A stretch of DNA of 64,000 nucleotides from Candidatus Bathyarchaeota archaeon. Its GTDB lineage: Archaea; Thermoproteota; Bathyarchaeia; 40CM-2-53-6. This document shows positions 3,699 to 61,084 of the stretch, in pieces. The stretch's first letter is position 1, and each line of letters starts with the position of its first letter. The stretch is from NCBI GenBank assembly GCA_963733055.1, contig CAVTBR010000003.1:704001-768000 (forward strand). The letters are read 5' to 3'. The notes beneath the pieces were generated by a model. It worked only from the letters and a program-made list of their open reading frames with translations. It was not told where the DNA came from and did not search any database. A program made the position numbers and the translations under genes.

Positions 3699-4115
3699 TC
3701 AGCTGCTCGGGGTAATGACTAGGAAGTTTTTGCAGACGAGATCTCCGCGTACGTTTTGGCCAGTCGCGATGGTTCCTACGCTATAGGACCCTGAAGGCAA
3801 TCCTCTAGCCAAAGTCACGTTGTATTGCCCAGCTGGGACAACTAGCGTTACGATGGCGTTGGATCCACCGAAGCCTTCCAGGCCTGGGCAGCTAGGTTCA
3901 GGGTAAATAGCGAGATCTGTTGGGCCTCCACCGGAGTAATAGAATTCTATGGGTTGTTTTGCTATTGGAGCCGCGGGTGAGTAGCTTATGGTGGGAGGAC
4001 TTTGCCCATAGGCAAGGTTAGTCGAAGTTAGGATTGCGACAGCAACCATAGCGATTCCCAGTAGCTTCCGCAAATCATAGGTCAAAGTGAAACGCCAAAC
4101 TCCGACGGCTAACAC
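3699..4115 (-). CDS. putative secreted protein
   Basis: Signal-peptide-like N-terminus followed by a beta-rich region. Confidence 0.6.
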   Translation of the reverse strand: MLAVGVWRFTLTYDLRKLLGIAMVAVAILTSTNLAYGQSPPTISYSPAAPIAKQPIEFYYSGGGPTDLAIYPEPSCPGLEGFGGSNAIVTLVVPAGQYNVTLARGLPSGSYSVGTIATGQNVRGDLVCKNFLVITPSS

Positions 4116-4280
4116 CGTAGAGTCGGATATAATCAGTCGGATCGAGGGAGCATGCTATTGCTATGCAGCTCTAATCCTCACCAAATTATCAGCTACAGTT
4201 TTGACAGCAAATAGTGAGAGTCCAAAGGCTAAAGTGTCGCCCAGATTGTCTCGTCGTTCGTAAGTTCCCCAGAATCCTAG

Positions 4281-45798: not shown

Positions 45799-46407
45799 TT
45801 AGTCGATTTTGATTTCTTTGCCCTTTGGTCTAGGTTGGGTTTTGCGTAGGGTGATTTCTAGGACGCCGTTGTTGTATGAGGCCTTGGTGCTGTCGGGGTC
45901 TACGCCGGTCGGTAGTTGAACTTCCTTGTAGTACTTGTGGTTCGGTGAATCCACTCTGATCGTTAATGCGTCCTCGTTGATGCTGGTCTTTATGTCGGAC
46001 TTCTCGACGCCGGGTAGTTCCGCAACTACGCGCACTTGTGCTTGTTCGTTGATGACATCGACTAAGGGTTCACGGGTTTCTTTTGGTTCCAGGGCTGGTT
46101 GCTGCATGCCGAATGCGCCTGGGCGTCGGGATGGTTTCACGTTGCCGAACTCTTGTACGTTGGGCTTGCCGTCGGGGCCGATAGACATGGAGTAGCCGTA
46201 AACGAAGGGGCCGTACTGCTTCACGGTTGAACCGTCAGGTAGCTTTCTCTCAGTCATCATGTCCTTCGGCATACCCTTGAGCATGTCCTGGAACATGTTC
46301 TCGAACATCTCATCGACGTCGCCGAACCAGCGGTCCATCCAACCGAAAGGAGACTGCCTGCCCTTTCGTGACCTAAACCATTCGGGAAGGAATTCGTCTG
46401 AAGACAT
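45799..46407 (-). CDS. hsp20: archaeal small heat shock protein Hsp20
   Basis: GPFVYGYSMSIGPDGKP, REPLVDV, AELPGVEK, ASYNNGVLEI. Confidence 0.96.
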   Translation of the reverse strand: MSSDEFLPEWFRSRKGRQSPFGWMDRWFGDVDEMFENMFQDMLKGMPKDMMTERKLPDGSTVKQYGPFVYGYSMSIGPDGKPNVQEFGNVKPSRRPGAFGMQQPALEPKETREPLVDVINEQAQVRVVAELPGVEKSDIKTSINEDALTIRVDSPNHKYYKEVQLPTGVDPDSTKASYNNGVLEITLRKTQPRPKGKEIKID

Positions 46408-46436: not shown

Positions 46437-46485
46437 TGTTACCTTTAGTAACAGTCCGATATAAATATTGTTACGTAAGGTAACG
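46437..46485 (-). promoter_or_regulatory. hsp20 promoter: TATA box flanked by two GTTAC-N5-GTAAC operator-like palindromes
   Basis: TGTTAC-CTTTA-GTAACA 46437-46453; ATTTATAT on minus strand 46459-46466; TGTTAC-GTAAG-GTAACG 46469-46485. Confidence 0.7.
46471..46478. repeat. 8-bp palindromic target site duplication TTACGTAA, copy 1
   Basis: Identical 8-mer at 49323-49330 and 52117-52124, each abutting GGTAAC/GTTACC element ends. Confidence 0.9.
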
Positions 46486-46540
46486 TCAAGTCCTCGGTTG
46501 ATAGGTTAGTTTCTTGTTGTTGTAAAAAAGCGGTTGATAA

Positions 46541-47110
46541 CTAGGACTTTGACTTAGGTCGGAGTAGAAGTGCGTCGGTCGTATCTTGCCTAATATCTGT
46601 AAGGCCCTTTCTTATCGAGGACTTATACGCATCGGAATATCGAGCATATCGGTTGTTGAGCGAATCGAAAACTCGAAGGTGCTCATCATCATAGCCAACT
46701 ACTGTGAACATATGCTTGTTGCCATTAAGTTGGCCCGTGTAAACATCGTGCGATGGAACGGAGATTATGTAAGGTAGTCCGTCATCCACACCTTTTTCCA
46801 GAGCGATAATTAGGTCTTCGAATGTCTTGAAGTCGGATGCGGGAAAATGTTTAGGCGTTCGTGACCAAGCTAAGTCTTCATGCGTCGAAAGAGGCGGCTC
46901 TGTGTAAGACAAAAGCCCAATGTCTGACTCAGGTTTTCGCATTCGTGCATTACACGCTGATATGAAAACTTCAGAAAGCGCATTTTGGTTTATCTTCGAA
47001 TCAGGTACGTGATAACGCGTAACGGCTTCAACATTCGCAAATGTACACCACCACCAATCTGCTTGCCGTACGCCGAAAGGGAAATCGTCGAACCTTGGTA
47101 TGCACTTCAT
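46541..47110 (-). CDS. papain-fold (C39-like) peptidase, cargo
   Basis: VRQADWWWC...KHMFTVVGYD...RVFDS gives Q-C-H-D catalytic order; start overlaps the transposase stop. Confidence 0.65.
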   Translation of the reverse strand: MKCIPRFDDFPFGVRQADWWWCTFANVEAVTRYHVPDSKINQNALSEVFISACNARMRKPESDIGLLSYTEPPLSTHEDLAWSRTPKHFPASDFKTFEDLIIALEKGVDDGLPYIISVPSHDVYTGQLNGNKHMFTVVGYDDEHLRVFDSLNNRYARYSDAYKSSIRKGLTDIRQDTTDALLLRPKSKS

Positions 47111-48261
47111 GTAAGCTCTTTCATGTTTCTTGCTTCTTTTGCGTTTTGGATGAGCGTTAGCCACTTGTTTTCACCGCTTATGGTTATTCCCGCTACTTCT
47201 GCCGGAGTTTTGCCGTTCAATGCCGTGTGTGGTCGTATGTAGTTGTGAAATAATTGATAGCCCCTAAGTATGGGACTGTCGGGCTTTTCGAGGGTACGCA
47301 TTACACGTTCTCGGTCACGGATTTCCCCGTTCATGCGTTCCATTTTGTTATTGTGAACCGTTCCATCGAAGCGTATGTCGCGTATGTGTTCGGGACGATT
47401 CGCTAGTTTGCTTGTGTAGAACTCGTCGTTGAATGCTTCATGAAAGTTAGGCGCACCGTCAGTAATGAGGGTTCTGGGGTTCTTGTGTGCGATTGCCTTA
47501 GCTTGTTTAAACAGCGGTCGAATGTCAGCCGAATACTTGGTATCGGCTACCTCTTGCGCTATCCAGAAACGGGTTTGGTCATCCATTAGAGCGTAGAGAT
47601 ATTTCATGTTGCCATGAACTTTCAGAAAGAGTTCATCGGCTCTCCAAGTATCGCTTACCTGCGGTGTGATTTTGTCTAAGTATTTCTCCATCAGAGCCGT
47701 GTATTTCTCAATCCAGTTGTAAACGGTTTGGTGGCTAACCTGAGTGCCCAACAGTCTGAGTGACCGAGAAGTATTTCTGAGGCTCTCACCGGAGAAATAA
47801 AGTTGCATAGCCGTTGTGATAGCTTGCGGGTTGTGCTTCATGCGCTCGAAACCTAGATTCACGCTAAAGGTTCTATGACAATCCGCACAGAGGAATCGCT
47901 GAATGTCGCCGTACTTGTTGTGTCTGCACCCGAACTTCTTCAGGTTTGAGGATTGGCAGAATAGGCAGGATGTAATCGAAACGGGTTCAATCACGTTTTC
48001 TTTGACTTTCTCCCTTATCCTGAGGCTGAACTCTACAGCCCAAATGTGCTTACATCTTAAAATCTGGTGAAGCTCTGAGGCTCGGTAGTGGAAATCTAAA
48101 CAATCACAAATCCATGAACCGTTCTCGCGACGAATAACATCATACATTCCATGTCCGTTCTGAGAAGCTACCTTGTAACTGCGCTCATCCATGCGCTGAA
48201 TTTGGTTTGGTTTCTCAGCGATTAGTCGGCCTCTTTCTTCACGGGAGAGAACTGTTTGCAT
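47107..48261 (-). CDS. IS6-like DDE transposase with N-terminal SWIM finger and zinc ribbon
   Basis: CDCLDF..CKH (SWIM), CLFC..CADC, HTH (LYFSGESLRNTSRSL), WRADE / LITDG / NNKMERMNG, HNYIRPH. Confidence 0.92.
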   Translation of the reverse strand: MQTVLSREERGRLIAEKPNQIQRMDERSYKVASQNGHGMYDVIRRENGSWICDCLDFHYRASELHQILRCKHIWAVEFSLRIREKVKENVIEPVSITSCLFCQSSNLKKFGCRHNKYGDIQRFLCADCHRTFSVNLGFERMKHNPQAITTAMQLYFSGESLRNTSRSLRLLGTQVSHQTVYNWIEKYTALMEKYLDKITPQVSDTWRADELFLKVHGNMKYLYALMDDQTRFWIAQEVADTKYSADIRPLFKQAKAIAHKNPRTLITDGAPNFHEAFNDEFYTSKLANRPEHIRDIRFDGTVHNNKMERMNGEIRDRERVMRTLEKPDSPILRGYQLFHNYIRPHTALNGKTPAEVAGITISGENKWLTLIQNAKEARNMKELT

Positions 48262-48271
48262 CGCTTTCACG

Positions 48272-48323
48272 GCTACGATACTGTAGCCTAAGTTTAATAT
48301 AAGGCTTACTACGATATCGTAGC
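48272..48323. promoter_or_regulatory. divergent promoter with paired operator-like repeats (element 1)
   Basis: GCTACGATACTGTAGC and ACTACGATATCGTAGC, 36 bp apart, around TTTAATATAA. Confidence 0.65.
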
Positions 48324-48333
48324 TCTGAGAACA

Positions 48334-48516
48334 ATGGTCAGAAGAGAGATACTCGGCAAATCCGAGCGTAAAGTACTAGAGGCATACTTCAACGGTAAAC
48401 GAATGAAAGGATACACAACGCTCTTCACCCGAATACGGCAACTCGGACTAACCGCAATAATCGAGGGATGTGAACACGATCTAGCTTTGTTGAGAAAGTT
48501 GAAGGGCGTACTCTAG
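48334..48516 (+). CDS. conserved 60-aa element protein (putative regulator)
   Basis: Homologous to 50994-51185 (MVR..ILG..ER..LE.Y..G...KGYT.L..RIR..GL.AIIEGCEHDL). Confidence 0.85.
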   Translation: MVRREILGKSERKVLEAYFNGKRMKGYTTLFTRIRQLGLTAIIEGCEHDLALLRKLKGVL

Positions 48517-49207
48517 CCTAGAACCTGTGCTTCAACGCTTCCATTAGGTGTAGGCTTAAGTTCGATATGATGTAACTTGCCGTCAACGCTTGTTCTCAAA
48601 GTCAGCCTGAAAGGGGTTAGGTCTAGTCCAGATGCACCGGAAGCAACTCCCAAGAAGATTGTATCAACGCTTTCGATTGTAAAGGCTAACAGTACTGTAG
48701 TTTGCCCGCCGTTTCTAGGAATTGTCTCTCTAGATACATGATGGATTCTGTCTCCACGGAAAGCAATTGTATATGGTTGATGTTTGCCCGCTGTTATTTC
48801 CAAATCACCTTCAGGGATGTGCGCATAGGTCAGTGGAAGCTCAACTGGGAAGAAATGCTTACTTGGCGGTGTCGCAGCCGAGGGAACATTAGTCACGGTA
48901 CAATCCTTCGCGTCTGCCCTCCCGTTGTTTTGCAATTTCAGATACGTGAGGAACGCTTTCTTTGGGCCAAGGTTACTAACCTTACCCTTCTCATCTAGAA
49001 ATGTCACATTCTTCGTTTGATATTCCATTGGAGGAAGGGCTTCAAACTTTAGCTTCGGTTTTAGAAAAAAATGCGATAGACTAGCCAAAATGCTGGTATC
49101 CCAAAAAGGATACCAGTCTCTATAATCAAAATCAACTCCCCCCAACTCGCTAAGGGAGGAATCCCCGCTGTCGTCGTGGTCGCATTTTGTAGGGGAAACA
49201 TGGACAT
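48513..49207 (-). CDS. membrane-anchored cargo protein (probable indel in A run 49065-49071)
   Basis: ATG 49207 frame gives MSMFPLQNATTTT...LILIIETGILFGIPAFWLVYR (TM), joining LKPKLKF... of the listed ORF; the listed start 49310 lies inside the TIR. Confidence 0.6.
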
Positions 49208-49322
49208 CTTCTGTTCCGATTCCATATTTAACGCCTCTTAAGAAAGAAGCTGATTTCGAGCCATCAACCGAAATTTTACAACGAGAAGAACTAAGGCTAT
49301 CAACCGTCATCTTGACGTTACC

Positions 49323-49330
49323 TTACGTAA
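49323..49330. repeat. TTACGTAA target duplication, copy 2
   Basis: Centre of GTTACC-TTACGTAA-GGTAAC junction. Confidence 0.9.
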
Positions 49331-49426
49331 GGTAACGTTACCTTAACGGTTGACGGCTCAAATTCTTGGTGCTGTTACCGTTCGGTTGATTTACCGCCAA
49401 GCCTCTCAAGCAGACAGGGCTTACTC

Positions 49427-49795
49427 TTGTATGCTTACGCTATCGGCACTACCATATTGGGAATCGTGGCAGGTGTATGTGCCGCTTTATTCCAAAAACG
49501 CAAAGAAAGCGTAGATGACGATATTGGATACCTAGAAGTTGGACAATGGTCCGCTCAATTGTTTACCGTGGAGCATTTCAATGAGCGATTTGCTAACTAT
49601 CACATCTACATAGACCCTAGTACAATACCAAACACGCCAGAGGCGACAATGACAGCCCCCTATGCTGCTTGCAGATATTTTCTAAGTAGGTTGAAAGCAA
49701 TTAGAGACACTAGACGATTCACAGTTACCCTTTCCACCATTATCGCTGCTATTGCGATAGGCACAGCCGCGATACTATTCGCGTTTGGATTTTGA
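49427..49795 (+). CDS. two-TM cargo protein
   Basis: Hydrophobic N- and C-terminal helices; convergent with the transposase. Confidence 0.6.
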   Translation: MYAYAIGTTILGIVAGVCAALFQKRKESVDDDIGYLEVGQWSAQLFTVEHFNERFANYHIYIDPSTIPNTPEATMTAPYAACRYFLSRLKAIRDTRRFTVTLSTIIAAIAIGTAAILFAFGF

Positions 49796-50917
49796 TGCGT
49801 TCTGAATCAGCGTTAGCCACTTATTTTCGCCCTCAACTTTGATTCCTGCAACTTCCGCAGGTGTGCGACCTTTCAAACCCTCGTGCGGTCGAACAAAGTT
49901 GTGATAGATTTGCATACCCGTTAGAATTGGTGTATCAGGAATCTCAAGAGTACGCATGACCTTCTCACGGTCCCTGAGTTCTCCGTTCATTCTTTCCATC
50001 TTATTGTTGTGGACTTGACCGTCAATGCGGATTTCTCGTATGTGTTCGGTTCCCGTTGGAGTCCAGAATTCTTTCTTGTACGCTTCATGGAAGTTTGGTG
50101 CACCGTCAGTTATCAGTGTCTTAGGTTGTTTACCTGCAATGTGTTTTCCGTGTTGAAAGAGTGAGCGAACATCAGCCGTGTACTTTGTATCGGCTACTTC
50201 TTGGGCTATCCAGAAGCGGGTTTGGTCATCCATGAGGGCATACAGGTATTTCATGTTCCCTTTCACTTTAAGAAATAGTTCATCCGCTCGCCATGTGTCA
50301 GATACGTTCGGTGTGATCTGGTTAGCGTAGTTCTGCATCAATGTCGTGTATTTCTTTATCCACATGAAAACCGTCTTGTAACTCACCTGAACCCCAAGCA
50401 ACCGTAGCGATCTAGCCGTATTCCTAAGCGATTCGCCTGAGAAGTACAACTGCATCGCGGTCGTTACTCCTTGCGGGCTGTGCTTCATCCGTTCAAATCC
50501 AACATTCACGCTGAAGGTGCGATCACAACTCACGCATAGAAAACGTTGAATGTCACCGTACTTGTTGTGGCGTATGCCGAACCTTTTCAGAGCCTTATCG
50601 GAATGACAGTAAATGCAAGCAGTAATTTCGACAGGTCGAATGATTACGTTCTCCCGTACCTTTTCTCGTAGCTGCTCGCGAATTTGACAGGCGATGATAT
50701 GTTTGCAGCGAACAATATGTCGTTGCTCTAATGCGCGGTAGTGGAAATCTAGGCAGTTACATAGCCACGAACCGCTTTCTCTATGGACTACATCATACAT
50801 TCCATCCCCACGCTGAGAAGCGACTTTGTAGTGACTTTCATCCATCTGCTGGATTTGGCTTGGATTCTCAGCGATAAGTCGCCCCTTTTCTTCACGGGAG
50901 AGAACCGCTTTCTGCAT
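49775..50917 (-). CDS. IS6-like SWIM-DDE transposase, copy 2
   Basis: CNCLDF..CKH, CIYC..CVSC, WRADE / LITDG / NNKMERMNG. Confidence 0.92.
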   Translation of the reverse strand: MQKAVLSREEKGRLIAENPSQIQQMDESHYKVASQRGDGMYDVVHRESGSWLCNCLDFHYRALEQRHIVRCKHIIACQIREQLREKVRENVIIRPVEITACIYCHSDKALKRFGIRHNKYGDIQRFLCVSCDRTFSVNVGFERMKHSPQGVTTAMQLYFSGESLRNTARSLRLLGVQVSYKTVFMWIKKYTTLMQNYANQITPNVSDTWRADELFLKVKGNMKYLYALMDDQTRFWIAQEVADTKYTADVRSLFQHGKHIAGKQPKTLITDGAPNFHEAYKKEFWTPTGTEHIREIRIDGQVHNNKMERMNGELRDREKVMRTLEIPDTPILTGMQIYHNFVRPHEGLKGRTPAEVAGIKVEGENKWLTLIQNASKSKRE

Positions 50918-50931
50918 GTCTTTCTACCTAA

Positions 50932-50982
50932 TGCAATATTGCTGCATAAGTAATATATAACACTTACTGCAATACTGCTGCA
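50932..50982. promoter_or_regulatory. divergent promoter with paired operator-like repeats (element 2)
   Basis: TGCAATATTGCTGCA and TGCAATACTGCTGCA, 36 bp apart, around TAATATATAA. Confidence 0.65.
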
Positions 50983-50993
50983 CGGGTGATAGA

Positions 50994-51185
50994 ATGGTCC
51001 GAAAACAGATACTAGGCGATTGGGAACGCAATATCCTAGAATCATATCTGAAAGGCGAGAAACTAAAAGGCTATACAGCGTTGTTATCTAGAATACGAAG
51101 CATGGGATTAAAGGCAATCATTGAAGGGTGCGAGCACGATTTGGTGATACTGAAACGCCTCGCCAAATCTGAGGCGACAATGTGA
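50994..51185 (+). CDS. conserved 63-aa element protein (putative regulator)
   Basis: Paralog of 48334-48516 at the same position in the element. Confidence 0.85.
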   Translation: MVRKQILGDWERNILESYLKGEKLKGYTALLSRIRSMGLKAIIEGCEHDLVILKRLAKSEATM

Positions 51186-51856
51186 GTAAATACATGCTTG
51201 GAGTAAGCCGGTTAAGGCTCGCCATTTGCGCGATCGTCATTTTATGTATCGGTGCAAGTCTATTTATTGAAGGCGGAATGTACCCGAAGGCAACTCTCTA
51301 TTCGCTTAACTATAGCTACCTAAGCTATGCCTTTCTCGCTCTTGCGTTTGTTTTCATATCTCCAACTATCTTGAACGCAGCTAAAGCGTGGAGAGCGATA
51401 GTCAACGATCTTGCAACTAAGAGAAAACTGGGCAAAGATGATTGGAATATCGAGGAGACGCGTGGAATCTTTGCTCTGGGCATCATAGGGACCATCATAG
51501 TGGTGAGAACGGACAAAAACGTAATCGCCATGGATTCTACTGGGTACTTGTTGTTTGCCATGAATGTCATGTTGGCCTGTTGGGTAGCCTATTCAATTTG
51601 CATGGCAATTGCACTACCTAACGAGTGGATTAGTCAACGAGTAAGAATTTGGAGTTTCCTAAGTGCTCAACTGTTATTTGTTTTCGGTGTCGTAATAACT
51701 GTCGCCGTTGGTTTGACGGGTTTTGTGACATATGTTTTAAGTGATTTCAAGGCAACTCCTCTTTATCCTTGGATAATCGGAATAACCGTTTGCCTTTCAA
51801 GTTTCGGAGTTGCCTTGCTTTTCTTCGAACCGAGAGAAGAATTTCAGACCGCGTAA
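51182..51856 (+). CDS. multi-pass membrane cargo protein
   Basis: About six hydrophobic segments; start overlaps the small gene's stop. Confidence 0.7.
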   Translation: MSKYMLGVSRLRLAICAIVILCIGASLFIEGGMYPKATLYSLNYSYLSYAFLALAFVFISPTILNAAKAWRAIVNDLATKRKLGKDDWNIEETRGIFALGIIGTIIVVRTDKNVIAMDSTGYLLFAMNVMLACWVAYSICMAIALPNEWISQRVRIWSFLSAQLLFVFGVVITVAVGLTGFVTYVLSDFKATPLYPWIIGITVCLSSFGVALLFFEPREEFQTA

Positions 51857-52116
51857 TGTTAAGCCGCTTGAGCACGAGAGAATCCCGATGACGACTAAAG
51901 GTTGCAGATTATGGTTCACTATGATGTAGACTGTGCCAATCACAAGTAGGAAAAGCGAACAAAAGAACGCTCCCAAATAGAAATCTCGTAACTCCTTCTT
52001 GTTCGTTCACTTTTACGCTTCTATTCCTCCTTAGTCTAGACCGATAGAATCCTTCCATCAACCGGACGGTAACAGTTGGATTCTATCCAGTTTTCAACCG
52101 TAGAGGTAACGTTACC

Positions 52117-52124
52117 TTACGTAA
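52117..52124. repeat. TTACGTAA target duplication, copy 3
   Basis: Centre of GTTACC-TTACGTAA-GGTAAC junction. Confidence 0.9.
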
Positions 52125-52184
52125 GGTAACGTGAAGTTCACGGTTGATAGGATATGCTGTGAAAAATCGGTTGATACTCTCTCA

Positions 52185-52658
52185 CTAACCGTGAATACGA
52201 TGTTTCAGCCAAAATTGAATTGCCACGGTTAATCCAGCGGCTATGAATAATCCTATGATGGCTCCAATCTGCCCATCAAGAAGATAGCCACCCACAGGGA
52301 ATATAATTCCGAGAATGCTGAATGTCGCAGTTCTCCAAGACGAGATTTGTGTCTGACCTACGTAAACCGACTTACCAGTAAGGAATGTGTAACCCACCAA
52401 GATAATGCAATAGCCAGAAAAGAAAACCACCCAAGACACTACTTCGTAGGACGCACCACCAATGAAATGAATACTGGCGGAAACGATTCCCGAAATCAGG
52501 AGCGCTGCAAGGTAGATTGGTGAAGTCTTGAACTTAGACTTTGGCGCTATCTTACCCGCACGATCGTGTTTAGAGGAAAGCGGGGCTTGGCAGACAGTGC
52601 AGTAGCTGTATTGATCGCTGACTTTTGACCCGCATTTTCCGCATTTAACGGTGCGCAA
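52185..52658 (-). CDS. zinc-ribbon plus four-TM cargo protein
   Basis: CGKCG..CTVC then four hydrophobic helices. Confidence 0.7.
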   Translation of the reverse strand: MRTVKCGKCGSKVSDQYSYCTVCQAPLSSKHDRAGKIAPKSKFKTSPIYLAALLISGIVSASIHFIGGASYEVVSWVVFFSGYCIILVGYTFLTGKSVYVGQTQISSWRTATFSILGIIFPVGGYLLDGQIGAIIGLFIAAGLTVAIQFWLKHRIHG

Positions 52659-52728
52659 CGATTTGACTTCGAACTAGTGCTTTGAGCTGCGTTCTGAATT
52701 AAGGTTGATTCCTTCCTGACATAGTAGG

Positions 52729-53133
52729 CTAGAATGGATGCTTTGGCCTGTCCTTGATCGCGTAATATGGCTTTTGAAAGTGTAGAAGGATTGCGACCGC
52801 CACAACTAATACGACTAGAATGAGAATCGCTAGATAGTCGAAATGGGTAAGCGTTGCTGTTGCGTTCGACGAAACGGTGATGGTACGAACTACCGTATAT
52901 TGACTCTCAGCGGTGATGCATCCTTCATCAAAACCACATGGAACAGTTGCCACCGTCTCAGGTACAACGTAAGTAAAACTAACAGCTGTGCCTAGAGTTG
53001 TTGTCTGTGAAGTCATCGACTGAAGAGAGGATTGAAGAAGCAATTCAAAATGACCGAATACAAGCAAAACAGCAACTACGGCTAGAAGAAAGAGATAGCG
53101 ACGCAGATGCGACTTCGGCGGCGGTCTCATCAA
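52729..53133 (-). CDS. two-TM cargo protein with Thr-rich loop
   Basis: TM - Thr/Ser-rich segment with a Cys pair - TM; start overlaps the transposase fragment's stop. Confidence 0.65.
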   Translation of the reverse strand: MMRPPPKSHLRRYLFLLAVVAVLLVFGHFELLLQSSLQSMTSQTTTLGTAVSFTYVVPETVATVPCGFDEGCITAESQYTVVRTITVSSNATATLTHFDYLAILILVVLVVAVAILLHFQKPYYAIKDRPKHPF

Positions 53134-53405
53134 ATCCTAGAACCAGTAGCATTCTTAGAAGCGTTTTGTATTAGAGTTAACCACTTGTTTTCACCGTCAA
53201 CTGTGATTCCTGCCGCTTCACTTGGAGTGTGACCGTTTAACGCTTCATGTGGACGAATGTAGTTGTGGAAGATTTGCATACCTGACAGAATCGCTGTATC
53301 GGGCTTTTCTAAGGTGCGCATGACCTTCTCTCTTTGGCGGAGCTCGCCGTTCATGCGCTCCATCTTGTTATTGTGTCGAACATCATCAAACGCAATATCT
53401 CCGAT
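53130..53405 (-). pseudogene. 3' fragment of SWIM-DDE transposase
   Basis: DIAFDDVRHNNKMERMNGELR...HNYIRPH...ENKWLTLIQNA; similarity stops near 53405. Confidence 0.88.
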
Positions 53406-53699
53406 AGGTTCGCTTCGTGCTTCTAGCCGAGTTGCGTGGAATTCTTTCCTTTTCCGGCATGGTTCAAAACTGCGTTTCGAAGCTGGAGAAAATCCCGCTT
53501 AGATGGATTGGTCAAGAGCGATTCCACTTAGTAGAACGGAACGGCAGTTGGTGGAACACTTCGGAGGGTGTTTTTCTCGGACGACCTGATACTTTGACGG
53601 AACGATTCAAGGACTTTGAAGGCTTCAATGCGAGGTTTTGGGTTTCAAAGTGAGGTTTTTGCGATTCAAGATGGCGGCGCCGCGGCGCGTGATGTTGCC

Positions 53700-54029
53700 A
53701 TGCCAGATCATACCACCAAGGAGTTCAATGATGAAGTCAAATTGGCTATTGATAATGCGATCTACACGCTACTAGGGCAGCAGGTTCTCAGGGCTGTATA
53801 CGATCACTTGAGAGAGCGTTACGATGTAACGGGAGATGAGCTCCCTTATCGGTTGGACACCTTGTTCGAGACGCTTGAAGCCACTTTCGGGCTTAAGGGT
53901 GCATTAACCCTTGGCCGAGTGATCGCGAGGTGCGTTTATGCTCGAATGGGACTGAGATTCATCGAACTACCAAATTATACACTTCAGGATTATTTGGAGC
54001 GCGCCAAGCAGCAATTAGCCCTAACGTAG
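53700..54029 (+). CDS. NitrOD5/DUF3227-like small helical protein
   Basis: AIDNAIYTLLG..V...Y.HL...Y......LPYRLDTLF..L...FG pattern. Confidence 0.65.
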   Translation: MPDHTTKEFNDEVKLAIDNAIYTLLGQQVLRAVYDHLRERYDVTGDELPYRLDTLFETLEATFGLKGALTLGRVIARCVYARMGLRFIELPNYTLQDYLERAKQQLALT

Positions 54030-54449
54030 TACCCAACCTAGGTTCTCTGGAGGTGACTGAAGCGCCAACAGATTTTGTGTTGAATCCTTCGGCTGGTAAC
54101 TAACATCTTCATTTGGTGGTTGCGGCTGCATGAGGTCTTCGGCGAGTATGCGCTTCAACTCTTCGACGTGCTCTGTGAAAGTGCGCTCGATCTTAAGGTC
54201 TAATGGAACATTCGCTTTAGCGTACAGTTTCTTGACTATCACCCTTCCCAAGGTCTCCCCTCCAACTCCGAAAGCGCCCTTAAGGGACGCAAACAGGGTG
54301 TCCAAGCGGTAGGGCATCTCATCACGAGTGATTCCAAGAAACGCCTGATAATGGTACCAAAATGCTGCCGTTACTCTGTTTCCCAAGACTTCGGAAATAG
54401 CTTCGTCTACAGAATCAATGAGAAGATCATTGAAGTCAGTAAGATGCAT
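54021..54449 (-). CDS. NitrOD5/DUF3227-like protein, convergent paralog
   Basis: Shares DE.PYRLDTLF..L...FG..G..LGRVI with 53700-54029. Confidence 0.65.
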   Translation of the reverse strand: MHLTDFNDLLIDSVDEAISEVLGNRVTAAFWYHYQAFLGITRDEMPYRLDTLFASLKGAFGVGGETLGRVIVKKLYAKANVPLDLKIERTFTEHVEELKRILAEDLMQPQPPNEDVSYQPKDSTQNLLALQSPPENLGWVLR

Positions 54450-54530
54450 TCTTGGCAAGGAGAAAAGGCAAATAAGATTACTCAAAATCTTGCAGTTAAG
54501 ACTTGCGTAAACTCAAGCTTCTCTTCTCGG

Positions 54531-60337: not shown

Positions 60338-61084
60338 TTAGTCTGCGTGACCATTGTTCCAGTTCGTAATAACACCGAGAGCTTCTGTCAGACTTCCGAC
60401 CCTTGCGTCCGGGTTCACGAAAGACATACCTTCGATCGGTTTGCGAAGTATATGAATCGAACGCATTCCCATCCTCTTTGAACCCACGACATCCGCTTCC
60501 ATTGAGTCACCCACAAAAATCGAATCAGATGCCTTCACTCCCAAGGAACTCAAAGCCTGAGTGAAGATTTCTTGGCGCGGCTTCCTGATCCTCAGCGCAG
60601 CAGAACTCAGAATGGTCTTGAAGAATCCGTTTAGGTTACGCCGTTCTAATATCGCGTGCACAGCATAGTCGCTCTTTGCGTTTGAGACTATCCCCATGAC
60701 GTAACCCTGCCCCTCGAGGGCGGCTAGTGTTTCGATTGTATCGGGGTAGACCTGCCAAGACTCAATTTCCGGTTTGAAGAACTCAACCATAGCATTCGTT
60801 GGCAGTTCCATGCCTTGATGCTCTAATCCGGACTTCGTTAGAGTCTTTGAGATGATTTCTTCCATCGGAATCTCAATTTTACGTAAGTTCGCTTCGTCGG
60901 AGGCGTGGTTGAATTGTTTTGCGAATTTTTTCGCGAATTTCTCTGAATCCAGTTTCAGACCTTGCGTGCTAAGATAGTTGTAGAGTTGTTGGAGGTTCGC
61001 TTGGAAGATATCCTCCCAGGGTCGGTCTAGGTGTACCAACGTGTCACCGAGGTCGAGAAAGACCGCCCTGACCAACGCTATCAC
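60338..61084 (-). CDS. HAD family hydrolase
   Basis: DLGDTL, VSN, RKP, VGDSMEADV. Confidence 0.92.
   Translation of the reverse strand: MIALVRAVFLDLGDTLVHLDRPWEDIFQANLQQLYNYLSTQGLKLDSEKFAKKFAKQFNHASDEANLRKIEIPMEEIISKTLTKSGLEHQGMELPTNAMVEFFKPEIESWQVYPDTIETLAALEGQGYVMGIVSNAKSDYAVHAILERRNLNGFFKTILSSAALRIRKPRQEIFTQALSSLGVKASDSIFVGDSMEADVVGSKRMGMRSIHILRKPIEGMSFVNPDARVGSLTEALGVITNWNNGHAD

Follow-up and report, generated by a model that had tools for sequence, protein, structure and literature searches.

In the closest described systems of targeted transposition, namely Tn7 with TnsD at attTn7, the yeast elements Ty3 (guided by TFIIIB) and Ty1, and the fission-yeast element Tf1, which inserts at stress promoters, a DNA-bound protein or landmark sets the distance at which insertion occurs. 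The place chosen is harmless for the host, and the same landmark can be hit repeatedly. The elements described here belong to the IS6 family. Its hallmarks are an 8-bp target duplication and ends that begin with GG, most members measure 700–890 bp (up to about 1.7 kb in the long clades) with transposases of 213–254 aa, and just one element is said to carry a passenger gene; the available portion of the review describes no preference for a sequence or a promoter, except for insertion beside a resident identical copy (PMC7986276).

According to the available part of PMC9133787, only two archaeal heat-shock regulators are known. HSR1 of Archaeoglobus binds CTAAC-N5-GTTAG upstream of an operon of the hsr1-cdc48-hsp20 type, and Phr of Pyrococcus sits over the transcription starts of hsp20 and of AAA+ ATPase genes, where it blocks recruitment of RNA polymerase to TBP/TFB (PMC9133787). 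The initial annotation of the DNA studied here had named both as binding N5-type palindromes; this is correct for HSR1, while the Phr site as quoted in the same partial source is not an N5 palindrome. In the literature we found no description of a GTTAC-N5-GTAAC motif or of IS6-family elements in Bathyarchaeia, nor, in sources that were partly available, of promoter-directed transposition in archaea or by the IS6 family. The accessible part of a survey of mobile elements in Thaumarchaeota (PMC6563490) does not treat hsp20 or heat shock.

The window, by which we mean the whole 64-kb stretch of DNA analysed, contains an hsp20 gene of 202 aa (positions 45799–46407, minus strand; Pfam HSP20, E 5.4e-13), and orthologues were found in 35 of the 41 relatives searched. 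Its TATA box tataaata (TATTTATA on the hsp20 strand) lies at 46460–46467 on the minus strand, and the alignment of hsp20 promoters places the predicted TATA hexamer TTTATA (hsp20 strand) at 46460–46465, minus strand. The TATA box is flanked by two TTAC-N5-GTAAC palindromes, as the initial annotation had stated. The proximal operator TGTTAC-CTTTA-GTAACA (46437–46453) consists of host DNA throughout and, read along the hsp20 strand, follows the TATA hexamer at a distance of 7 nt. It is kept in all 18 hsp20 promoters read in the genus, and its extended motif TGTTAC-N5-GTAACA is also present at the cdc48, htpX and thermosome promoters of this genome. The distal palindrome reads TGTTAC-GTAAG-GTAACG (46469–46485). 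Within its core GTTAC-GTAAG-GTAAC (46470–46484) the inner half and the spacer (46470–46478) are host DNA, and the outer GTAAC (46480–46484) is the tip of the adjoining element E1, again as had been proposed. The core motif GTTAC-N5-GTAAC occurs twice in the 64-kb window compared to 0.01 expected, and none of 100 shuffles reached two copies.

Beyond the promoter, three elements (E1, E2 and E3) are bounded by three copies of the 8-mer TTACGTAA, which represent the target-site duplication (copy 1 at 46471–46478, copy 2 at 49323–49330, copy 3 at 52117–52124). The window holds four copies of this 8-mer versus 0.46 expected, and 1 of 100 shuffles reached four; the fourth copy (60879) lies within an unrelated ORF and was taken as chance. 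E1 is an IS6-family element of 2844 bp (46479–49322, minus strand) with matched inverted ends GGTAACGTCAAG and CGGTTGATAG and with TTACGTAA on either side. It encodes a transposase of 387 aa (47107–48270, minus strand; Pfam DDE_Tnp_IS240, PF13610, E 5.9e-14, 52.8 bits, cutoff 27), whose first ~200 aa contain Cys/His motifs and gave no significant match to a Pfam family (SWIM, E 0.68). A passenger ORF of 207 aa for a papain-like C39-type peptidase (46541–47164, minus strand; Pfam Peptidase_C39_2, E 1.2e-5, 26.4 bits, cutoff 24) is present as well, together with an ORF of 265 aa without a family match (48513–49310, minus strand), which starts inside the right inverted end and may not be a gene. 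E2 (2786 bp, 49331–52116, minus strand) is also of the IS6 family and has its own matched ends, GGTAACGTTACC and CGGTTGA, and a transposase of 380 aa (49775–50917, minus strand; DDE_Tnp_IS240, E 2.9e-14, 53.8 bits, cutoff 27) that shares about 72% identity with that of E1 (tblastn). The ends of both elements start with GGTAACG and carry two internal repeats of the CGGTTGA type within ~60 nt. The GGTAACG at 46479 marks the true end of an element: E1 and E2 each have matching inverted ends and a DDE_Tnp_IS240 transposase. E3 (52125–53444, minus strand) is decayed: its left end is intact and a C-terminal transposase fragment remains (~53160–53444), but no right boundary was found in the window. 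The 22-nt end of E3 recurs in the stack of another genome of the genus (G014). The internal junctions read GTTACC-TTACGTAA-GGTAAC at 49317–49336 and at 52111–52130, in agreement with the initial annotation.

Archaeal transcription is terminated by oligo-T runs. A T6 run on the hsp20 strand (46524–46529, minus strand) lies in the left end of E1 just past the stop of the last E1 ORF, and it may act as a terminator that shields hsp20 from read-through out of the element.

The assignment to the IS6 family rests on several features. E1 and E2 have a DDE transposase of the IS240/IS26 type, and eight different 8-mers were found duplicated on both sides of elements (TTACGTAA, CGGGCGCG, CATCTGAG, CCAGTATG and ATCTAGGA in this genome, CAGGCGCT, ATCCCGAG and TAAGAAAG in relatives). 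The inverted repeats start with GG, their ends being GGTAACG, GGTTCTG, GGTTGTG or GGCGCTG, and extend over ~60 nt. The compact organisation with a single ORF was not found: besides E1 and E2, an element at a thermosome promoter measures 2629 bp, and extra ORFs are present. Compared to the described family, the elements are thus much larger (2.6–2.8 kb), have two extra ORFs and transposases of 380–387 aa, and home to one promoter position.

The perfect palindrome GTTAC-N5-GTAAC is present at eight distinct sites of the 2.88-Mb genome, compared to about 2.8 expected from simple arithmetic. Seven of the eight are located at promoters of genes identified by Pfam: two at hsp20, two at cdc48, and one each at htpX, a thermosome gene and dnaK. 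At cdc48/VAT the TATA box is flanked by two palindromes that are arranged as at hsp20 and consist entirely of host DNA; at the gene for the M48 protease (htpX-like) the palindrome lies just downstream of the TATA box, and one perfect copy each precedes the thermosome gene and dnaK. A scan with the further requirement of a TATA-like hexamer 6–8 nt upstream also picked out a second thermosome gene, whose palindrome has one mismatch. The eighth perfect site (C2:46315) has no recognisable gene: neither there nor at C2:483321, which are both promoter-like targeted sites, was a called gene or a tRNA (ARAGORN) found downstream, and no Rfam family was found downstream of C2:46315.

Other families of the order likewise have the double palindrome in front of hsp20, and in sister genera it precedes an operon of a 248-aa ORF and hsp20 (248-aa ORF in G023 and G024; genomes of relatives are labelled G001, G002 and so on). 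Among the named hsp20 loci (35 of 80 scanned), the motif was found in 16 of 18 entries from Bathyarchaeia and in none of 17 from other archaea. The motif shares with the HSR1 site the 5-N5-5 geometry, and like the HSR1 and Phr sites it is located at the TATA box, or directly downstream of it, in hsp20 and in an AAA+ ATPase gene (cdc48). It differs in the sequence of its half-sites and in a wider regulon that includes htpX, thermosome and dnaK genes. The enrichment at chaperone and protease promoters bears out the earlier view of an operator-like palindrome, and judged from sequence the motif behaves as the operator of a predicted heat-shock regulon whose members are hsp20, cdc48, htpX, two thermosome genes and dnaK. 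Two candidates for the repressor were considered, a winged-helix-like ORF of 86 aa after cdc48 and the ORF of 248 aa that precedes hsp20 in G023 and G024. Neither gave a significant Pfam or PDB match, their winged-helix hits being below threshold, and tblastn found no match to the latter in this genome.

The initial annotation had proposed that the transposon end completes the distal palindrome at hsp20. This was not supported. Three genomes of the genus carry an hsp20 allele with no element, and the distal palindrome is perfect in G005, with GGTAAC being also present in G002 and G003; the GTAAC half-site, whose absence from empty alleles had been named as a refutation of operator targeting, is present in all three, and none of the refuting conditions set in the initial annotation was fully borne out. 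In G005 the sequence reads TTG-TTACTAAA-GGTAAC and then continues with host DNA that can be aligned with G002, G003, G008 and G012, and G008 has the same 8-mer as G005 but an element end next to it. In outgroup families both palindromes are found at hsp20, and there is no transposase within a distance of 1.5 kb. The distal palindrome thus belongs to the host and was complete before insertion. Because empty alleles, outgroups and the cdc48 promoter carry a native distal palindrome, the tip of the element replaces an identical half-site and is not its creator. The native half-site is thereby displaced to the opposite end of the stack. We searched G008 and the window for an intact far-side junction, consisting of the native GGTAAC and the host flank, and recovered none; in G008 the first ~45 nt of the host flank beyond the stack are missing.

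Insertion at hsp20 is common in the genus. In our set of 23 genus genomes, most of which are metagenome bins with contigs broken at repeats, 16 of 19 readable genomes have an element-type end at this exact nucleotide of the hsp20 promoter and three are empty, whereby kinship of the genomes makes such counts overstate the number of independent events. The order hsp20, stack, TPR, RtcB is conserved across the loci of the genus; of the 18 loci fetched, 11 gave transposase matches in the stretch from hsp20 to the conserved TPR/RtcB genes, and two more are cut by contig ends. The ends that adjoin hsp20 belong to at least five types of inverted repeats, three genomes with 95% identical Hsp20 bear three different element ends, and the orientation of the transposase at hsp20 differs between genomes. 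Junctions within stacks read GTTACC-8mer-GGTAAC and use the hsp20 8-mer of the respective genome (TTACGTCA in G019, TTACGCCA in G021, TTACGACA and its reverse complement in G004, TTACGTAA four times in G017). The suggestion that each insertion regenerates its target, and that this explains the stacking, is supported by the duplicated 8-mer at each stack junction. In stacks with several elements, a full-length transposase match was found in the hsp20-proximal element in six of seven cases, and the farthest element gave no more than a transposase fragment in all seven, which agrees with elements arriving one after another at the 8-mer copy nearest to the promoter. Reverse-complemented 8-mers are present inside the stacks of G004 and G019 (contig C18), and G017 has two inverted transposase copies of equal score; these arrangements are apparent signs of replicative intramolecular (cointegrate-type) events.

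Other promoters with the operator are hit at the same position. Where the palindrome lies 6–8 nt downstream of the TATA box, the element end is found 13 nt upstream of the TATA hexamer (8-bp duplication plus 5 nt). In this genome, GGTAACG occurs within 0–60 nt of a perfect palindrome only at a spacing of 26 nt, namely at three loci (hsp20, htpX and C2:46315); the same 26 nt separate an element end from a one-mismatch palindrome at C2:483294. At the second thermosome promoter, the 2629-bp element with tips GGTTGT and GGTACT lies 13 nt from TTTATA; CGGGCGCG is duplicated on either side of it and a further element end follows. In relatives, htpX has GGTAAC-tipped elements in G019 and G002 and GGTTCT-tipped elements in G021 (with CAGGCGCT on both sides), G014, G006 and G010, and the promoter of a putative dnaK-like gene of G002, assigned from the reading of the locus, has a GGCGCT-tipped element. 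A genus-wide pattern search gave matches in 19 of 23 genomes, and the reversed control pattern gave none.

For a census we used a query without any element letters (TTTATA-N7-GTTAC-N5-GTAAC with 45 free upstream positions) in the 23 genomes. It returned 28 promoters, 23 of which have an element end at −13. In 20 cases this is an end of the type ..GTTACC followed by an interior that resembles an inverted repeat. The remaining three have other termini, two of which (htpX of G013 and G018) are only likely, by their likeness to the thermosome-promoter element. No end was found at −13 in five promoters (G022:C188, hsp20 of G002, G003 and G005, and htpX of G001). Clean empty htpX sites were seen in G001 and, with a different spacing, in G011, while G015 is uncertain. 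The htpX promoter of G013 was rejected as an empty site, since the sequence upstream of it looks like the inverted repeat found in the thermosome-promoter element, and it is thus probably occupied.

The 8-mers at different promoters are unrelated and show no consensus. Where the spacer between TATA box and operator has 6 or 8 nt, the distance to the TATA box stays at 13 nt and that to the palindrome becomes 25 or 27 nt (five cases, all with tips other than GGTAAC, two of them verified by the duplication and three by the end motif). The htpX promoter, that of a thermosome gene and others are hit at the same register although they lack a distal palindrome. The insertion point is set relative to the TATA box and the proximal operator, not by the distal palindrome. 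The claim that the elements target the operator thus holds as far as it concerns site-specific insertion at operator promoters, and has to be modified with regard to what fixes the point and to the existence of copies elsewhere. As in landmark-directed insertion, the distance is fixed and independent of the sequence at the cut site. The proposed genome scan found the motif at other chaperone and protease promoters, with elements inserted at some of them.

The elements show a strong preference for operator promoters, though not an exclusive one. Of about eleven insertion loci in this genome, about five are at operator promoters, of which there are only some eight in 2.9 Mb, and about six are elsewhere, among them two small elements with the duplications CCAGTATG and ATCTAGGA; termini could not be counted genome-wide with a loose regular expression for the ends, which gave too much noise. 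G011 has two transposase copies of equal score, one at hsp20 and the other at an unrelated site with the duplication ATCCCGAG, and G004 has a clean off-target copy with the duplication TAAGAAAG. Insertion of related elements at sites unrelated to the palindrome, which had been named as an argument against targeting, does occur to this extent, yet leaves the preference standing.

An ancient single insertion beside hsp20 that was inherited and diversified in place, with selection purging other promoter insertions, would fit the conserved synteny, the shared history of related genomes and the harm expected from insertions nearer to the TATA box, but is hardly credible, since htpX, thermosome and other promoters of one genome are hit at the same register with unrelated 8-mers, close relatives differ in the type and orientation of the hsp20 end, three genomes of the genus have empty alleles, and selection leaves unexplained why equally harmless positions further upstream are never used.

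We consider it likely that a lineage of the IS6 family in soil Bathyarchaeia inserts at a fixed nucleotide of promoters with the heat-shock operator, and that this site is probably read via proteins bound to the promoter. The landing site would be recognised through proteins on the repressed promoter, i.e., the predicted repressor together with TBP/TFB, rather than through the sequence of the target DNA. A protein complex on the repressed promoter is favoured because there is no consensus at the cut site, the register follows the TATA box, and only operator-bearing promoters are hit. If the repressor is Phr-like, TBP and TFB would remain parked on the DNA without polymerase and could serve as long-lived landmarks; the 8-mer lies directly upstream of the expected BRE position. 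At hsp20 the fixed position falls inside the native distal operator, and the cut parts the outer GGTAAC from the rest. Since the elements found there all end in GGTAAC, the palindrome beside the TATA box is rebuilt base for base, and since the duplicated 8-mer stays beside them, BRE and TATA box are left untouched. As the 8-mer ends up equally far from the TATA box after each insertion, a newly arriving element uses the same point and older copies move outward, which results in the E1-E2-E3 stack with intact elements near the promoter and the relic far from it.

The main rival to reading through proteins on the promoter is recognition of the operator by the transposase itself, without a host protein: its ~200-aa Cys/His-rich N-terminal extension, the one candidate for a dedicated targeting part, would bind the palindrome, and the catalytic core would attack a fixed distance away. 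The palindrome is indeed common to all promoter hits, and the transposases are ~150 aa longer than the 213–254 aa given for the family in the accessible part of PMC7986276. An attack at a fixed distance from the palindrome does not agree with distances of 25, 26 and 27 nt at a constant 13 nt from the TATA box. The tip of the main clade equals the operator half-site, but ends with GGTTCT, GGTTGT and GGCGCT reach the same register, so that likeness between tip and operator is not required. As the N-terminal region, in addition, has no significant family match, we regard direct reading by the transposase as unlikely.

Much less probable still is targeting by element ends, as in the conservative integration of IS26 or in IS30 and IS911. 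In this case the native GGTAAC would act as a pseudo-end, resident elements would attract newcomers, and stacking would be a by-product. At hsp20 the native GGTAAC is located exactly where the tip later sits, the 8-mer of every stack junction is flanked by two GGTAAC ends, and integration beside a resident copy is known for IS26, IS1216 and IS257 (PMC7986276, available portion). As with IS26, IS30 and IS911, new elements insert immediately next to one that is already present, so that arrays form. Those systems require like ends or an identical transposase and produce no new duplication, and the IS26 route needs identical elements (PMC7986276, same portion), whereas the neighbours in our stacks are heterogeneous, with 72% transposase identity and different ends in E1 and E2, and have an 8-bp duplication between them. 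Furthermore, virgin promoters without any element end are hit: the htpX, second thermosome and G002 promoters were reached at the same register, in the absence of a GGTAAC pseudo-end, by elements with other tips. Hits at such promoters and duplications between heterogeneous neighbours show that end-directed targeting is not the general rule. The position of intact elements on the promoter side and of relics on the far side is also better explained by an anchor at the promoter than by a free choice of junctions.

The tip itself deserves separate consideration. GGTAAC was found at all 16 ends that adjoin hsp20 and at every stack junction found there. At other promoters, in cases found without GGTAAC in the query, two ends have GGTAAC and six have GGTTCT, GGTTGT or GGCGCT, a contrast that comes from a small and phylogenetically confounded sample. 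The comparison suggests that the tip may vary freely as far as transposition is concerned and is held as GGTAAC where it stands in for an operator half-site. Probably the GGTAAC tip evolved as an adaptation by which the distal hsp20 operator stays whole; it could equally be that the GGTAAC clade prefers a site that already carries GGTAAC. A farther-reaching version of the promoter-bound reading, namely that archaeal insertion sequences read the TBP/TFB complex held by a repressor as a landing pad, with the transpososome being recruited to the base pair directly upstream of BRE, and that the cleavage-site tip of the hsp20 clade evolved into a working copy of the half-site, is put forward as a serious possibility rather than as our expectation.

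Compared to Tn7, Ty3, Ty1 and Tf1, the elements at the hsp20 locus belong to other transposase families and hosts, and the protein landmark is one that we infer. The element family and landmark-directed insertion as such are known; what is new is their combination in an IS6 lineage that takes an archaeal core promoter as its landmark and whose tip copies an operator half-site. The data define a candidate heat-shock regulon and its operator from sequence alone in Bathyarchaeia, an abundant group of uncultured archaea, and they reveal an IS6-family lineage with a near single-nucleotide choice of target set by promoter architecture, in a family that matters for gene mobilisation. The match between tip and half-site offers a testable case of a parasite that preserves the regulatory site it interrupts. 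If a promoter-bound complex guides integration, transposition directed by transcription factors would no longer be confined to eukaryotic retroelements and Tn7, and archaea would have a natural safe-harbour insertion system that looks programmable. Should both the landing pad and the evolved tip prove true, these elements would be the first among prokaryotic insertion sequences, and among archaeal transposons, to read a transcription complex, as an analogue of Ty3 and Tf1; host regulation would survive the insertion, and the element would gain a permanent safe haven that refills itself.

Both E1 (46479-49322) and E2 (49331-52116), the complete IS6-family elements stacked upstream of hsp20, carry additional ORFs. 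In E1 these are a C39-like peptidase ORF (46541-47164) and a 265-aa ORF that starts within the inverted end (48513-49310); in E2 they are two membrane-protein-like ORFs (49427-49795 and 51182-51856). A review of the IS6 family quotes a passenger gene for one member only (PMC7986276), and E1 and E2 differ from the family in this respect. Between the relic of a third element, E3, and a conserved 124-aa gene, a convergent pair of ORFs (137 and 154 aa; 53616-54485) encodes paralogues with 37% identity, for which no family match was found. The same interval in the relative G013 lacks this pair, and the two ORFs may be old passenger genes.

Within stacks of relatives, the stack 8-mer also occurs in reverse complement (G004 hsp20 and G019:C18), and a pair of transposase copies of equal score stands in inverted orientation (G017:C4:835053-842840), as expected for inversions arising from intramolecular replicative transposition. 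A fourth copy of TTACGTAA, the 8-mer duplicated at the hsp20 target site, lies at 60879-60886 of the window within a HAD-type hydrolase-like ORF (60338-61084); no element end adjoins it, and it was taken as a chance occurrence. In metagenome bins a contig often ends within about 1 kb of hsp20 (G016, G020, G008, G005, G021, G019:C174), which is consistent with assembly breakage by repeated elements, and occupancy may therefore be under-seen in fragmented genomes.

At an operator-like site of the genome under study (C2:483321) an element end stands at the usual register, 13 nt upstream of the TATA hexamer. Immediately downstream is a tRNA-like, apparently interrupted sequence (C2:483340-483450, minus strand), for which ARAGORN made no call. 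In G013 the hsp20 promoter is present twice; the additional copy (C4:218213-218285; L075, L100) has both palindromes, the TTACGTAA 8-mer and a similar leader, and drives a gene for a secreted-looking 196-aa protein. An element stack adjoins this copy; promoter and elements seem to have been transferred or duplicated together. A further copy of this kind is located at the contig end of G019:C174.

In G023 and G024 (L033, L034), representing two sister genera, a 248-aa ORF precedes hsp20 and the pair is under the double operator, a layout reminiscent of the hsr1 operon. The C-terminal winged-helix signal of this ORF is weak, and tblastn revealed no counterpart in the genome under study. In that genome, cdc48 starts about 160 nt past its own proximal operator and is preceded by a 46-codon upstream ORF; an 86-aa ORF follows 4 nt after the gene (L001:1617-1757 and 3939-4199, respectively; G000:C1:383116-385699). 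Winged-helix matches of the 86-aa ORF (TFIIE_alpha, FUR) are sub-threshold, and it is a candidate regulator.
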